Assembly: GCA_965202805.1 (NCBI GenBank)
Contig: OZ241869.1
Location: 3,520,001-3,584,000, forward strand
DNA length: 64,000 bases
Direction: 5' to 3'
Source: Longimicrobiales bacterium
GTDB taxonomy: Bacteria; Gemmatimonadota; Gemmatimonadetes; Longimicrobiales; Gaopeijiaceae
The number at the start of each line of letters is the position of its first letter. The first letter of the stretch is position 1. A program made the position numbers and the translations under genes. Of the stretch, positions 11,331-41,520 are shown piece by piece. A model generated the notes under the pieces. It searched no databases. It saw only the letters and a program-made list of their open reading frames with translations, and was not told the origin of the DNA.

Positions 11331-11372
11331 TTCGGTACGTTCCAGTACCGAAAGGGTGACCAACAGGGTGAT
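11331..11372. repeat. Left-end palindrome TTCGGTAC-GTTCCA-GTACCGAA and AGGGTGA arm-type repeats
   Basis: Perfect 8-bp inverted repeat at 11331-11352. AGGGTGA at 11353 and 11365, with a third copy at 15043 on the far side of the IS. Confidence 0.6.
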
Positions 11373-11416
11373 TGCAAAGGGAATTACATACCTAAGTAAC
11401 CACGGAAGGGCTAAAT

Positions 11417-11635
11417 ATGTCGAAGCGTGATATCCCTGCGGGCCACATAGATGTTACGGGAGTATGCGTACCATTTAAACATCACGAAACGGGAGAACCG
11501 GTCCTAACGCCGTTTGAGAGACTCGGTCCAGATATCAGAGCCATTCTTTGTCAGGAGGTTGCCGAGTTCCTGCGCCGAGGTGGAGACCCGGGAATTACGG
11601 CGACAAATAAAATGAGAAAGTTATGCGATCCATGA
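11417..11635 (+). CDS. Small hypothetical protein (IS passenger)
   Basis: 72-aa ORF just inside the left TIR after GGAAGG; no recognisable motif. Confidence 0.4.
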   Translation: MSKRDIPAGHIDVTGVCVPFKHHETGEPVLTPFERLGPDIRAILCQEVAEFLRRGGDPGITATNKMRKLCDP

Positions 11636-11867
11636 TGTTCTTTTCCTTATGACACGTGTTGCAAAGAGCTTGCAGGTTGTCCTCATCATCAGTCCCATCA
11701 GCAAATAGTGGCCTGATGTGATCTATCTCGAGCGGAAACTCGCTATTTCGGCGGGGACATCTTTCTCCCTTGCTGTGGTGTGGACATATATACTGGCCCA
11801 TGCATTGACACTGATAGTCGGCACGGATTCGTACAAGCTCCTTCGTGATTTCTGATAGATCAGACAT
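11595..11867 (-). CDS. Small HNH endonuclease
   Basis: CQC...C, LEIDHIRP...GTDDEDNLQALCNTCHKEK: HNH/McrA-type motif with Zn ligands. Confidence 0.85.
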   Translation of the reverse strand: MSDLSEITKELVRIRADYQCQCMGQYICPHHSKGERCPRRNSEFPLEIDHIRPLFADGTDDEDNLQALCNTCHKEKNIMDRITFSFYLSP

Positions 11868-11894
11868 AAGCTCGCCCGTTGGGCTACCAACGGG

Positions 11895-12116
11895 TCACTT
11901 GTTCTCCGCTATACGATGCTGCGTACTCATAGCACGCAGTCCGTTGACGATGACCGCTGCTACAGATCGTGGTGCGCTATCGTCCACCAACCGAGTATAC
12001 GCTAGCGCCGCCAACATGCGCTCGGAGCCGGTGACATTGTATCCGCTCCACGACGCTCCGCTTGCCACGGACGCTAGCGTTTCTTCCAATAGTGTACGGC
12101 CTTTCTGGTTGGCCAT
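11895..12116 (-). CDS. Hypothetical protein upstream of the HNH gene
   Basis: 73-aa ORF with strong RBS (GAGAGGAG), co-oriented with the HNH gene and about 27 nt from it. Confidence 0.55.
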   Translation of the reverse strand: MANQKGRTLLEETLASVASGASWSGYNVTGSERMLAALAYTRLVDDSAPRSVAAVIVNGLRAMSTQHRIAENK

Positions 12117-12210
12117 GATTTTTCTCCTCTCTCTTTCCCGGTGTTCCGTATCTAGGGCGCACCAAGACTAGCTGGACAGCCCCCGATGCGCTACCCCCCT
12201 TGCCGACGAC

Positions 12211-12239
12211 TTGACTTCTGCGCGCCCAATGGTTACTAT
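12211..12239 (+). promoter_or_regulatory. Sigma70-like promoter of the transposase
   Basis: TTGACT-17 nt-TACTAT, followed by an AAGGAGG RBS. Confidence 0.65.
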
Positions 12240-12272
12240 TTTTATGTAAACGAATGAACACCGAAAGGAGGC

Positions 12273-13226
12273 ATGGAGACCAGACCGATGGCGAAGAAGG
12301 CACCCGGCAAGCACTTCAGGAAGGGCATAACGCTCGTCGACCTGTTCAGGAGGTTCCCTGACGATGAGGCGGCGGAGCGTTGGTTCGCGGACACGCGATG
12401 GGGCGGAGAGCCCGTGTGCCCGCACTGCGGCTCGATCAACGTCCAGGCAGGCACGACGCACCCTACGATGCCGTACCGCTGCCGTGATTACCGGAAGTTC
12501 TTCTCGGTGAAAACGGGAACCGTGATGCAGTCCTCGAAGCTTGGTCTCCAGAAGTGGGCCATCGCCATCTACCTGCTGGCCACCGGGATCAAGGGCGTGT
12601 CGAGCATGAAGCTCCACCGCGATCTCGGGATCAGCCAGAAGTCGGCGTGGCACCTGCTGCACCGGATACGCGAGTCGTGGGACGACAAGCAGCCGAGGTT
12701 CGCGGGCCCGGTCGAGGTCGATGAGACCTACATCGGCGGCAAGGAGAAGAACAAGCACGCGAAGAAGAAGTTGAGGGCTGGTCGCGGCACGGTCGGAAAG
12801 ACGGCGGTCGTGGGCGCTAAGGACCGTGAGAGCAACCGTGTTGCCGTGCAGGTGATCGAGCACACGGACAAGGCCACCCTACAGGACTTCGTGGACGAGC
12901 ACGCCGATCCAGGGGCGATGATCTACACGGACGGCGCGACAGCGTACGAGGGCCGGGAGCGGCACGAGACGGTTCGGCACAGCGTGGGCGAGTATGTCCG
13001 GGGACAGGCGCACACGAACGGCGTCGAGAGCTTCTGGTCGATGCTGAAGCGCGGATACTACGGCACCTACCACCGCATGAGCCCGAAACACCTCGACCGC
13101 TACGTGAACGAGTTCGCCGGCCGGCACAACATCCGGTGCAAGGACACCATCGAGCAGATGAAGGAAATCGTCCGTGGACTGGACGGGAAGCGGCTGCGCT
13201 ACCGAGAACTCGTGGGTCGACCTTGA
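12273..13226 (+). CDS. IS1595-family (ISXO2-like) DDE transposase
   Basis: Zn ribbon CPHC...C; HTH region; VEVDETYIGG, IYTDG, HTNGVESFWSMLKR, YVNEF. Confidence 0.95.
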   Translation: METRPMAKKAPGKHFRKGITLVDLFRRFPDDEAAERWFADTRWGGEPVCPHCGSINVQAGTTHPTMPYRCRDYRKFFSVKTGTVMQSSKLGLQKWAIAIYLLATGIKGVSSMKLHRDLGISQKSAWHLLHRIRESWDDKQPRFAGPVEVDETYIGGKEKNKHAKKKLRAGRGTVGKTAVVGAKDRESNRVAVQVIEHTDKATLQDFVDEHADPGAMIYTDGATAYEGRERHETVRHSVGEYVRGQAHTNGVESFWSMLKRGYYGTYHRMSPKHLDRYVNEFAGRHNIRCKDTIEQMKEIVRGLDGKRLRYRELVGRP

Positions 13227-13267
13227 CCGAAGGAAGGCCGAAAGGTTATATTGAGGGAATCAGAGCG

Positions 13268-13300
13268 AAAAAGCCCGCCACCGTGGCAGCGGTGACGGGC
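13268..13300 (-). terminator. Intrinsic terminator for the minus-strand M48 transcript
   Basis: On the minus strand, GCCCGTCACCG...CGGTGGCGGGC followed by TTTTT. Confidence 0.6.
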
Positions 13301-13313
13301 TCCTCTCTGGCTG

Positions 13314-13387
13314 GCCCACGTAGCTCAATCTGGACGGAGCACCTGCCTCGCAGCAGAAGGTTGCGGGTTCGAATCCCGCCGTGGGCT
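13314..13387 (+). tRNA. tRNA-like gene or pseudo-tRNA with a 6-nt anticodon loop; isotype unclear
   Basis: Acceptor stem GCCCACG/CGTGGGC; D stem GCTC/GAGC; T arm GCGGG-TTCGAAT-CCCGC; anticodon arm CCTGC-CTCGCA-GCAGA; no encoded CCA. Confidence 0.75.
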
Positions 13388-13464
13388 CTTACAGAATATC
13401 ATAACGTTTCTGGAGCGCAAGCGCAACCCCTGTTAGGGCGTTGCTGAGCACACGTCAAGTTCTT

Positions 13465-14274
13465 CTACCCCAGTGGCTTACAACTTGTCCCGAGCTTCCG
13501 TCCGTCGACTGCGGTCGGGACCAGGGATTCGCCCGCTGCCAGCTTTGCCGCGATCTCGCGGGCGGTGGTTTGGATATCAAGGTACCGCTGTGCGGTGCTT
13601 GGGTGGGTGGCCGTTGCGGTTGCCGCGATGTACGACGGGTTCGCGCGGCCCAAACGCCTCCAGAAGGCAGCAGCACCAGAAACGTCGTATCCAGCGCGCG
13701 CGGCAAAGTACGTGCCTATGTAGTCCGCTTCCGACTCGAATTCCTGTGAGAAAGCATGGAGGCCCGCGTTGGTGAACTCGCTGCCACGATACCCGGTGAC
13801 GGCACCGTACACAGCATCGCCGAGTGCACCAAAGAAGGCATTCCGACGCTTGGCCCCGATGTGGCCGCAGGCCGCGTGTGCAAGCTCGTGGCCTACCACC
13901 ATGGCGATTTCGGCGTCGTTCTCGGCGAAATCGAGTAGCCCGTTCGACACCATGATATCGGTGCCATCCGTTGCGGCGGTGACCTGGGTTGTCGGTAGCC
14001 GCACAAGGCCGTAGGCGCAGGAGACGGTGCCATCCGGTAGGCTGATGATCTTCGTCACACTGCAGAAGTATCCGTTGGCGGCGAGAACGCGCCGACCAAC
14101 GTCCATGAACCGGAGTAGGAGTTTAGGGGACTGGACAGCGTTCGGGCCGCGCTGACGCGCTTGTTCACGCGCTACCGCCGTTGGACCGGAGTAGGGAGCA
14201 CGGGAGGTGGGGGTTGCACACGCGGCTAGCGCAGCAAGGAGGAGGAACAGGAAAAACGCACGGGACCGATTCAT
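13465..14274 (-). CDS. M48-family zinc metallopeptidase lipoprotein
   Basis: Lipobox LAAC; EIAMVVGHELAH; ESEADYIG; THPS. Confidence 0.88.
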   Translation of the reverse strand: MNRSRAFFLFLLLAALAACATPTSRAPYSGPTAVAREQARQRGPNAVQSPKLLLRFMDVGRRVLAANGYFCSVTKIISLPDGTVSCAYGLVRLPTTQVTAATDGTDIMVSNGLLDFAENDAEIAMVVGHELAHAACGHIGAKRRNAFFGALGDAVYGAVTGYRGSEFTNAGLHAFSQEFESEADYIGTYFAARAGYDVSGAAAFWRRLGRANPSYIAATATATHPSTAQRYLDIQTTAREIAAKLAAGESLVPTAVDGRKLGTSCKPLG

Positions 14275-14329
14275 GACGGGCTTGCCCTCCGTCCGAAGTG
14301 TGAAGACGCGCGGCACAACGGGTGCCGGG

Positions 14330-14479
14330 CCGTTGGCAAGCCTACCGCGCAGGGAAACTGCGGGAAGAACTCCTGCCTGTTCGCCCGGGGCGGGGAGCTA
14401 CCCACGACACCCTTGATGGGCTCTTGTATTCGGCAGGTAACCCGACATGGACTACCTGCGCAGTACGGCTTGCCAACGG
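14330..14479 (-). ncRNA. Candidate structured RNA (~150 nt) of unknown family
   Basis: ~24-bp closing stem (14330-14353 with 14455-14479) and nested stems CGGG/CCCG, CCTGCC/GGCAGG, CCCA/TGGG. A minus-strand TTGCGG-18-TATCCT promoter-like motif lies immediately upstream. Confidence 0.5.
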
Positions 14480-14569
14480 TGAGGATAACCCGACTTGATC
14501 GGTCACCGCAAGCGATGCTATCTTTGTCTTCGACGCTGATGAAAACCAACTTCGGGAGCGGAGCCGTTC

Positions 14570-14737
14570 ATGTCAGAAAAGCGACCACGGGGGCGTCCCG
14601 TCGAGTACCCTTACCCGGACCCGATCCCGGACACGCCGGAGAACATCGCCAAGGCTATCCTCGCCACACCACCGAAGAAACCCAAGGAATGGCGGTTCGT
14701 GCAGAAGCGCGAGAGACAAACGAAGCAGGATCGCTAA
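14570..14737 (+). CDS. Small basic protein with AT-hook-like RPRGRP motif (55 aa; not in the ORF track)
   Basis: MSEKRPRGRPVEYPYPDPIPDTPENIAKAILATPPKKPKEWRFVQKRERQTKQDR*, preceded by GGAG. Confidence 0.65.
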   Translation: MSEKRPRGRPVEYPYPDPIPDTPENIAKAILATPPKKPKEWRFVQKRERQTKQDR

Positions 14738-14739
14738 TA

Positions 14740-14991
14740 GTGGATATTGGCGAAGCCCCGGAGCACGTTGATGAACGTGCCATTTACTCAGTGCCAAGTA
14801 TGTATTCGTTCTTCTGTGGGTGCCAAAACGAGCCCATGTCCAATACCTACATCAAGGATCACACCGCCGTGGTTTGTGGCCGGTGCGGAAAAGCGGAATC
14901 TATCTCGGACATGATTACGTCCTGGAAAATCGACGGAATCAAGATTGACGTCAGAATAAGCCCGAGGATTTTCACACACTTCCGAAAGTAA
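14740..14991 (+). CDS. Small Cys-rich (CxC...CxxC) hypothetical protein
   Basis: GTG start 2 nt after the previous stop; FCGC and CGRC motifs; ends just inside the right TIR. Confidence 0.45.
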   Translation: MDIGEAPEHVDERAIYSVPSMYSFFCGCQNEPMSNTYIKDHTAVVCGRCGKAESISDMITSWKIDGIKIDVRISPRIFTHFRK

Positions 14992-15053
14992 GAACAGTGG
15001 GTCAACTTCGTGGTTACTTAGGTATGTAATTCCCATTGCAAAAGGGTGACCAG

Positions 15054-16220
15054 ATGGGCAAACACGGCAGGAAACTCACCGCCGCCTTCGTGCGGAACGT
15101 CCGGGAACCGGGCCTGTACTGGGACGAGCACGGCCTCGTGCTCCGCGTCAAGCCGTCCGGCTACAAGCAGTGGATCCAGCGGTTCTTCATCCACGGCAAG
15201 CGCCGGGAACTGGGATTGGGTCCCCTCCGCCTCGTGACGCTGGCCGAGGCGCGGGACGCGGCGCTGGCCAACCGCAAGGTGGCCCGAGCGGGCGGGGATC
15301 CGAGGAGGACGCGGCGGCGCTCGGTGCCGACGTTCGAGAAGGCGGCGGCCAAGGTATTCGCGATGCACCGTCCGAACTGGACCGACAGGCACGCGGGCCA
15401 GTGGATGTCGACGCGGCGCGCGTATGCGTTCCCCATGATCGGGCGGAAGCGGGTGGACCATATCTCGCCCGCCGATGTCATGGGGGTGCTGCTTCCGATC
15501 TGGAACGAGAAGCACCAGACGGCCAAGCGGGTCCGGCAGCGGATCGGAACGGTGATGCGCTGGGCGATCGCTCAGGGCCACCGGGTGGACAACCCCGCGG
15601 GCGACGCGATCGGGGCAGCCTTGCCCAAGCCGCCCCGCGTCCAGAAGCACTACAAGGCGCTGCCCCACGCGAAGGTGGCCGGGGCGATCGAGGCGGTCCT
15701 CGCGTCCGAGGCGAGGGTGACGGTGAAGCTGGGATTCGAGTTCCTGGTGCTGACGACCTGCCGGTCCGGCGAGGTGCGGGGAGCGCGCTGGAAGGAGTTC
15801 GACTTGGACGACGGGGTGTGGACGATCCCGGCGGAGCGGATGAAGAGCCGCCGCGAGCACCGGGTGCCGCTGTCGGGGCGGGCGCGGGAGATTCTGGCCG
15901 GGGCCAAGGCGCACGCGCCCCAGTCAGAGTTGGTGTTCCCGTCCGCGCGGGGGCTGGTGCTGCCGAGCTTCGAGTTCGCCGGCCTGCTCAAGGCCCTCGG
16001 GGCCGGGGCCGTGCCCCACGGGTTCCGTTCGAGCTTCCGGGACTGGGCGGCGGAGCGGACGGACGCGCCGCGCGCGGTCATGGCGGCGGCGCTGGCGCAC
16101 GCGGTGCGCAACAAGGTGGAGGCCGCCTACGCCCGCTCCGACCTGTTCGAGCGCCGCCGCGTCCTGATGGAGCGGTGGGCGGAGTATCTGGCGGGCGGAC
16201 GGGAAGGCGCCGAAGCCTGA
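15054..16220 (+). CDS. P4-like tyrosine integrase with N-terminal arm-binding domain
   Basis: LTAAFV...GLVLRVKPSGYKQW...GKRRELGLG; catalytic CRSGE, HGFRSSFR, LAH, AAY. Confidence 0.93.
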   Translation: MGKHGRKLTAAFVRNVREPGLYWDEHGLVLRVKPSGYKQWIQRFFIHGKRRELGLGPLRLVTLAEARDAALANRKVARAGGDPRRTRRRSVPTFEKAAAKVFAMHRPNWTDRHAGQWMSTRRAYAFPMIGRKRVDHISPADVMGVLLPIWNEKHQTAKRVRQRIGTVMRWAIAQGHRVDNPAGDAIGAALPKPPRVQKHYKALPHAKVAGAIEAVLASEARVTVKLGFEFLVLTTCRSGEVRGARWKEFDLDDGVWTIPAERMKSRREHRVPLSGRAREILAGAKAHAPQSELVFPSARGLVLPSFEFAGLLKALGAGAVPHGFRSSFRDWAAERTDAPRAVMAAALAHAVRNKVEAAYARSDLFERRRVLMERWAEYLAGGREGAEA

Positions 16221-41042: not shown

Positions 41043-41414
<372 letters not shown>

Positions 41415-41446
41415 CGCGGGGGAGCACGCGGTCATGGCCGCGACCC

Positions 41447-41520
<74 letters not shown>

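Follow-up and report, generated by a model that had tools for sequence, protein, structure and literature searches.

A Probable sRNA-Xcc1-Like Leader Upstream of an M48 Peptidase Gene in an IS1595-Family Element and Its Predicted Role as a Two-State Translation Switch

The IS1595-family element and its passengers

The window analyzed here is a stretch of 64,000 nucleotides from the genome of a Longimicrobiales bacterium, and it contains an IS1595-family element with passenger genes at 11379–15034 (plus strand, 3,656 bp). The element ends in 26-bp perfect terminal inverted repeats (11379–11404 and 15009–15034) and is flanked by an 8-bp target duplication, ATTGCAAA, at 11371–11378 and 15035–15042. 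The insertion site was found empty in all five loci fetched from four genomes of the same genus. The transposase is a 317-aa protein encoded at 12273–13226 on the plus strand (PF12762, E 2.5e-41, and PF12760). On the minus strand, 13465–14274 encodes an M48-family peptidase of 269 aa (PF01435, E 2.6e-17) with a predicted lipoprotein signal, its hydrophobic N-terminus finishing in LAAC. This is the gene that lies under the RNA leader discussed below, of which the source genome has a single copy.

The element carries several other passengers. A 90-aa HNH protein is encoded at 11595–11867 on the minus strand, and two small plus-strand open reading frames lie at 14570–14737 and 14740–14991; neither matched a family at the cut-offs used, the former having been scanned against both Pfam and PHROG. 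A plus-strand TTGATC-18-TATCTT motif (about 14496–14525) overlaps the promoter of the RNA and may drive these two frames divergently. The insertion point coincides with the 5' end of the gene for a tyrosine integrase (15036–16220), splitting off an upstream region that is contiguous with it in relatives. Between the transposase gene and the 3' end of the M48 gene lies a tRNA-like gene (13314–13387, plus strand; 56.1 bits in Rfam) with a 6-nt anticodon loop; a related contig from a metagenome run has one extra G after 13351, giving a normal 7-nt loop, and ARAGORN also made calls at 4 of 20 other IS1595-linked loci. Elsewhere in the window an ordinary RNase P RNA gene is followed by a tRNA-Arg (41047–41520, plus strand), and outside the window about 16 closely spaced tRNA calls were obtained at a relaxed ARAGORN threshold on the minus strand of the source genome (G000:C1:2827836-2830698).

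The RNA element, its family and its cargo genes

The initial annotation of this DNA described a rod-like RNA of about 150 nt with arms at 14330–14353 and 14455–14479, and the arms are where it put them: on the minus strand they form a 24-bp helix that is interrupted by a single bulged base and contains one G-U pair. The minus-strand rod (14479–14330, 150 nt) folds at -80.6 kcal/mol (z -6.6), which none of 200 shuffled sequences matched, and the plus strand of the same 150 nt reaches -76.4 kcal/mol (z -6.0) with a branched fold instead of a rod. The M48 ATG at 14274 lies 55 nt past the stem, as annotated. The promoter-like hexamers are likewise present, TTGCGG starting at 14511 and TATCCT at 14487 with a spacer of 18 nt, and make up a predicted sigma-70-type promoter (14482–14511, minus strand; -35 at 14511–14506, -10 at 14487–14482). 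This promoter is absent from the list produced by a strict sigma-70 scan. What speaks for it is conservation of position: the pattern TTG-N(19-21)-YAnnnT occurs in 87 of 153 relatives, in 75 of them at 58–68 nt before the conserved core, against a mean of 12 and a maximum of 23 in shuffled sequences. A structured minus-strand RNA with its own promoter inside the transposon is thus supported by fold, promoter conservation and the covariation described below.

While the rod is real, it is just one fold of a longer element (about 14274–14511). The element does not stop at 14330, because its most conserved 3' motif and the tail that follows run from 14331 to 14320. Read 5' to 3' on the minus strand, the order of parts, which is fixed across the family, is promoter, arm A, a short linker, B, P2, an internal loop, a hairpin-tipped arm, the opposite side of the loop, P2', a linker, A', B', a tail, hairpin P4, the Shine-Dalgarno sequence and the start codon. 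Arm A (14455–14479) is free in sequence and pairs with its own A' (14330–14353) as the rod. A' is able to pair with arm A, the P3 linker or the translation-start region. B (14439–14446), supported by conserved pairs and by the ninth-pair test given below, is the 5' strand of an alternative closing stem, P1; the 3' strand, B' (14331–14324), and an ACCC tail (14323–14320) together form a segment (14320–14331) resembling the end of a tRNA acceptor.

Between B and A' lies a conserved core common to both folds (14372–14437), with its 5' half fixed by our search pattern and its 3' half loosely anchored by a regular expression. It consists of the P2 stem (14437–14432 with 14377–14372), an asymmetric internal loop in which GAAUACAA (14431–14424) faces GAACA (14382–14378), a short stem, and an inserted arm tipped by the apical hairpin GGG-UAGCU-CCC (14393–14403), in which the self-complementary AGCU (14399–14396) is a candidate kissing loop. 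The nested stems drawn earlier fared unevenly: CCUGCC/GGCAGG is conserved as drawn, CGGG/CCCG is peculiar to the source copy, and in place of GAG-CCCA/TGGG-CTC, a plus-strand reading, the family has GCC(C)/(G)GGC plus the GGG-UAGCU-CCC hairpin. Downstream of the core, the P4 hairpin (14311–14327; 14327–14322 with 14316–14311) appears in the MFE fold of the full leader and would take up B' in the rod state; across the family its duplex scores -13.3, compared with -9.9 for shuffled sequences and -7.5 and -8.5 for control windows. The leader ends with the Shine-Dalgarno GGAGG (14290–14286) and the ATG (14274) of the M48 start region (14274–14290). Between these two lies an 8-nt repeat of arm A (14286–14279), complementary to A' at 14342–14335.

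A blastn search found true relatives in 8 of 18 genomes of the genus; three further matches (L022–L024) were without the motif and were dropped. A 25-letter pattern built from the same-genus relatives hit at least 120 loci in GTDB genomes and at least 121 in metagenomes; a scan of viral contigs with it gave no match, and none fell in phage or plasmid records. Among the matches listed, 257 gave 214 unique sequences, of which 174 were anchored at both ends and 153 of these were non-redundant; the 61 other unique matches were incomplete at their ends, unanchored or redundant. The relatives come from at least eight phyla. The 80 titled records among the matches listed are all MAGs, and the lineages recorded there include Alpha- and Gammaproteobacteria, Gemmatimonadota, Acidobacteriota, Latescibacterota, Nitrospirales, Chloroflexota, Limisphaerales, Syntrophobacterales and Binatia, lineages which we take to be typical of marine sponges. 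A contig from a run labelled as sponge metagenome covers 14340–14616 at 14 differences. A covariance model built from 70 of the 153 relatives detected one to three copies in 12 of 19 genomes of the genus. In the phylum it matched 9 of 151 genomes, with up to six copies in one of them (G184). The distribution is patchy, as expected from horizontal spread.

The RNA element is not specific to IS1595, since a transposase of that family lies within 2.5 kb at 14 of 66 long loci. The other upstream neighbors include IS21, IS1-type and other DDE transposases, integrases and many housekeeping genes (114 of 119 candidate reading frames scanned). Two arrangements deserve separate mention. One genome holds two tandem leader copies about 520 nt apart with different A arms (G002:C1:2776026-2776711). 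At four loci (L055, L066, L084 and L095) the leader and the gene behind it, which encodes a related protein of about 366 aa, occupy a conserved place in the chromosome next to genes for Yip1 and an ABC transporter, and this suggests domestication in one lineage.

Searched with Rfam at gathering score, the whole window yields just RNase P and two tRNAs, and the element itself matches no family. The element is real, conserved and uncatalogued in Rfam. Among the papers listed on sRNA-Xcc1, IsrK/C4, RNase P/CI, IS1595 ncRNA and sponge RNA motifs, none was seen to describe the family, and the main text of 10.64898/2026.09.22.753630 mentions neither Xcc1 nor IsrK nor IS1595; large motif catalogues may list it.

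The genes that follow the element are informative about its role. A same-strand reading frame of at least 45 aa is found in 141 of the 153 relatives, at a median of 50 nt from B', and a Shine-Dalgarno match of at least 4 nt in 103. The initial annotation had offered either a discrete noncoding RNA or a cis-regulatory leader of the M48 gene. The cis-leader has much stronger support than a free-standing rod, given that relatives lie at this median distance ahead of genes on the same strand. Judged by a crude hydrophobicity rule, 76 of the 92 genes with well-supported starts encode a hydrophobic, signal-like N-terminus. Of 87 eligible cargo proteins, 79 were scanned against Pfam, and 58 of those matched no family; the remaining 21 include outer-membrane barrels, CsgG, TraT, O-antigen ligase, an LPS glycosyltransferase, TM2, peptidases of the M48, M10 and S8 families and rhodanese proteins. 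Also among the 21 are a few cytoplasmic proteins, such as an HTH protein and a methyltransferase. What these genes have in common is their predicted destination, the envelope, and not their ancestry.

Crossing helices and a proposed switch

Run on the homologues, the covariation check finds that both A:A' and P1 covary. Arm sequences vary between copies, even inside one genome, and each arm still recognizes its own partner: own A' is the best of 153 candidate partners for 108 of the 153 A arms and ranks among the top three for 134, with duplex energies of -31.8 kcal/mol for own and -16.5 kcal/mol for foreign partners. Comparison of the two strands favors the sense helix in 113 elements and the antisense helix in 26. 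P1 is a G-started stem of 8–9 bp. Its eight core pairs are kept in 149–153 of the 153 relatives, although many positions of P1 and P2 are fixed by the search pattern. The ninth pair, which was not selected in this way, is Watson-Crick in 101 of 153, against 49 in shuffled alignments (maximum 68), and RNAalifold recovers P1 (B:B') as well. For the combined structure, 93.6% of cells are paired compared with 86.5% after shuffling, a statistic that ignores relatedness; double changes number 154 against 44, a value reached in none of 500 shuffles and above all slid controls too. P1 is followed by NCC in 115 of 153 relatives and by NCCA in 60; the source copy has ACCC, and its tail bases can also pair in P4.

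Since the order of the segments is A, B, A', B', the A:A' and P1 helices cross. A pseudoknot with both present would have to run a 24-bp helix over an 8-nt linker, which makes it unlikely, and we therefore treat the two helices as alternatives. A third pairing joins A' to the start of the gene. In 30 of 92 members A' ranks in the top 5% for complementarity to its own start region, compared with 3 of 92 in a coding control (median rank 0.21); the A'-start pairing stands out in only about one member in three. When arm A is deleted from the source copy, its MFE fold joins A' to the start region. Judged by comparison across the family, then, the predicted promoter, the order of the leader, the covarying crossing helices and an A'-start complementarity above chance are all established.

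Folding calculations point to the rod as the state of the intact leader. In full-length leaders the probability of P1 exceeds 0.5 in none of 92, the fold always being the rod, and it does so in 5 of 92 5'-truncated transcripts; excised pieces running from P1 to the tail form P1 in 137 of 153. In the source copy P1 can be imposed only at a cost of 26 kcal/mol, and the piece does not adopt the P1 fold even when excised (z -1.1), so P1 either needs help there or is degenerate. Opening the start region takes a median of 10.9 kcal/mol with A present and 13.4 kcal/mol without it, the cost being higher without A in 64 of 92 members and lower in 10. A foreign arm brings no relief (14.2 kcal/mol, against 11.2 with the own arm). 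The effect of A is 2.5 kcal/mol with the own downstream region and 0.9 kcal/mol with a foreign one (p 0.015), a modest difference from one random swap per element among kin that are not independent. In the source copy the cost is 8.1 versus 10.4 kcal/mol, and the Shine-Dalgarno sequence is partly paired even in the rod state.

The apical loop is palindromic in 101 of 145 extractable cases. AGCU dominates (91), and 15 elements use the alternative palindromes UGCA, AAUU, GGCC, CAUG or GAUC, each two or four changes away from AGCU (matches to CGCG and to a stem-located GGCC were discarded as stem sequence). Complementarity between the adjacent middle bases of the loop exceeds that of every column shuffle (0 of 5000). 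Adjacent loop bases cannot pair together, and pairing between two molecules is therefore the simplest reading. Counting against kissing are the 44 of 145 loops that are not palindromic, 21 of them CGCU in which just two pairs are possible, and one family member (L021) that does without the inserted arm.

Taking these results together, we consider it probable, with moderate confidence, that the RNA is the 5' leader of the M48 mRNA, an uncatalogued long member of the sRNA-Xcc1 fold, and that it acts as a predicted two-state translation switch for genes of exported proteins. Arm A is made first and would pair with A' before B' exists, so that the rod would be the default product; the rod would keep A' away from the ribosome-binding region and leave translation ON. 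If A were displaced, P1 could form and produce a junction resembling that of Xcc1, with an end like that of a tRNA. A cut by RNase P 5' of P1 would then remove A for good, freeing A' to bind the start region and turn translation OFF, with a short stable RNA left behind. For the displacement we favor pairing with a second RNA copy through the self-complementary loop, in which case output would track the level of the transcript; this is the least certain step of the scheme. The conserved internal loop may serve as a site for a host factor. The assignment of the rod to ON and loss of A to OFF is proposed because full leaders always fold as the rod and loss of A raises the cost of opening the start. 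This polarity, which is opposite to that of IsrK (see below), is what the calculated energies would favor, and both the processing by RNase P and the loop trigger we infer.

A different and rather unlikely reading is that the functional molecule is a discrete, trans-acting small RNA, about 125 nt long and with P1 as its closing stem, arm A and the downstream gene being incidental or part of a precursor. In its favor, sRNA-Xcc1 itself was seen as a single Northern band with mapped ends and a length of 88 nt (PMC2996969), about the length of our P1-closed model; the internal-loop sequence is common to both RNAs, and P1 and the NCC tail are as frequent in the family as given above (137 and 115 of 153). 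Such an RNA, however, would leave unexplained the sequence-free covarying arm A, the spacing to signal-peptide genes and the A'-start complementarity, and a U-run between promoter and core is present in just 6 of the 153 members.

Less likely again is a riboswitch or protein-gated leader, in which a metabolite, an ion or a host protein bound at the asymmetric loop would alone decide between rod and P1, without any pairing to another RNA molecule. The loop bases are near invariant on both sides and are common to phage Xcc1 across very different hosts, and the downstream genes have a common destination but no common family. The loop, however, sits in P2, and since both predicted folds contain P2, it is not obvious how binding at this place would select one of them; the covarying palindromic loop would also go unexplained. 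A portable expression cassette, i.e., a promoter with an mRNA-stabilizing 5' rod whose Xcc1-like parts are a relic of phage origin, would agree with the dominance of the rod in every full-length fold and with the recurrence of the element beside many unrelated genes and mobile elements. We find it improbable: a relic would decay, and yet compensatory change is still seen in P1, which is impossible in the rod, and likewise in the tail and in the palindromic loop. Finally, a role at the DNA level (a MITE, an attC-like site or a cruciform) or a self-cleaving ribozyme is very unlikely, despite the long terminal inverted repeat, the setting in mobile DNA and the 4-mer palindromes, which are possible methylation sites: the element is a single copy with no duplication at its flanks, the arms differ between copies, the G-U bias favors one strand, the GTT...AAC order is presumably the reverse of that in attC, and a search at E 10 or less gave no match to a ribozyme family. 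The DNA role is largely refuted.

Comparison with known RNAs

The initial annotation could not place the RNA in a known family. It does fall below the Rfam cut-offs, but its core is a distant and extended relative of sRNA-Xcc1 (RF02221). The source copy scores 19.3 bits with that model and the best of nine related loci 34.9, the gathering threshold being 53; none of 61 genomes had an RF02221 match at the cut-off. The kinship is mutual but distant, since all 16 canonical phage Xcc1 loci tested pass RF02221 (65–87 bits) and our family model scores 18 of 40 canonical loci weakly, at 13–31 bits. The two share the closing stem P1, P2 with an AUACAA/GAA internal loop, a 3' hairpin region and an RCC-type tail. 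The family is about 40 nt longer: in place of the Xcc1 tetraloop cap it has an inserted arm with the palindromic loop, a span of median 36 nt with an extra hairpin, making about 125 nt from P1 to the tail. A position upstream of a gene in mobile DNA is common to both as well, being described for sRNA-Xcc1 in a symE cassette (10.1101/2025.06.18.660453) and before an ORF6N gene (10.1101/2020.03.17.996009).

Three further candidates from among the known RNAs were rejected. The 6S RNA model (RF00013) gave no match at E 10 or less in a genome that is 98% complete, and the element is not a core single-copy gene; the host 6S RNA may be too divergent for RF00013. Antisense pairing with the host SRP RNA, considered in view of the signal-peptide cargo, fails on the absence of the complementary 8-mer from the host SRP gene. 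Resemblances to HDV-like ribozymes and to the T-box do not fit in topology, and 20% of members have U where the catalytic C would have to be.

The family may also be compared with two phage RNAs, CI of phage P4 and the C4 antisense RNA of phages P1/P7. The former causes termination and the latter represses an antirepressor operon, whereas the cargo here consists of envelope proteins; Rfam C4 gave no match to our element. Both phage RNAs are small and processed from a leader, and in our family such processing is predicted. PMC5499578 mentions these hairpin-like RNAs as ones for which cleavage by RNase P has been suggested, and CI acts on complementary sites of its own transcript (PMC4825925).

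The apical hairpin invites another analogy. Retroviral dimerization signals present a self-complementary kissing loop of 4–6 nt on a G-C-rich hairpin, and their sequence changes while palindromy is kept. The likeness is one of analogy only, with no homology; here the molecule is a bacterial mRNA leader, and its dimerization is predicted.

A parallel in logic is IsrK of the Salmonella prophage Gifsy-1. There a short terminated transcript pairs with the longer read-through RNA from its own locus and so moves that RNA from one of two folds to the other (PMC4825925). Our leader has the same ingredients: a 5' segment able to pair with a later part of the leader, two alternative folds, a predicted control of ribosome access and, as the proposed trigger, a second copy of the RNA. 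The two also differ. A terminator releases IsrK, which acts via a coupled upstream reading frame and is inactive in its cis-paired fold (PMC4825925), whereas here the rod is predicted to be the more open state. No terminator-like site was found between promoter and core in the window. A start codon precedes the core closely in 50 of 153 members (ATG 32, GTG 10, TTG 8); in the source copy this gives a 16-codon reading frame from 14448 that ends far from the M48 start. The isrK model (RF01394) gave no match at E 10 or less.

We fetched 118 phage loci with the Xcc1 motif, 94 of them non-redundant. The 100 nt upstream of Xcc1 pairs with the 3' part of Xcc1, own partners ranking best in 23 of 94 loci and in the top three in 46, and this 3' part falls in the top 5% for complementarity to the start region of the next gene in 40 of 83, compared with 6 in the control. 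A U-run separates the 5' partner from the core in 80 of 94 phage loci against 6 of 153 in our family (windows of 90 and 55 nt), where the partner is a short fused arm. The phage layout of a terminated upstream partner and arm pairing matches that of the isrK-orf45-anrP leader, for which it has experimental support (PMC4825925). The genes that follow differ too: a hydrophobic N-terminus is found in 2 of 83 after phage Xcc1, against the 76 of 92 of our family, and by their N-termini the phage genes look like antirepressor-type proteins. Rfam at E 0.1 or less finds no match for the RNA upstream of phage Xcc1 in 16 loci (within L279–L396). Going by sequence, the family would appear to keep the logic of phage Xcc1 and IsrK but to add the inserted arm, with a U-run in just 6 of 153.

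With a terminated upstream partner and start-region pairing across the 94 phage loci, the annotated sRNA-Xcc1 is suggested to be part of a cis switch as well. A bolder extension of the preferred reading, which we hold only tentatively and think doubtful as a whole, would see a self-sensing switch spread across phyla, with kissing loops, exchange of private arms and commitment by RNase P, giving each horizontally acquired gene for a surface protein an insulated, concentration-dependent and possibly bistable control; sRNA-Xcc1 would then be the middle module of a large IsrK-like leader superfamily, not a stand-alone virulence sRNA, and our family its terminator-less, fused branch. The association of one conserved core with many unrelated envelope genes across phyla points to a shared control of newly acquired surface proteins in uncultured bacteria. 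The private A:A' arms, which differ within one genome, would be natural orthogonal translation switches, and through this family the function of sRNA-Xcc1 becomes testable.
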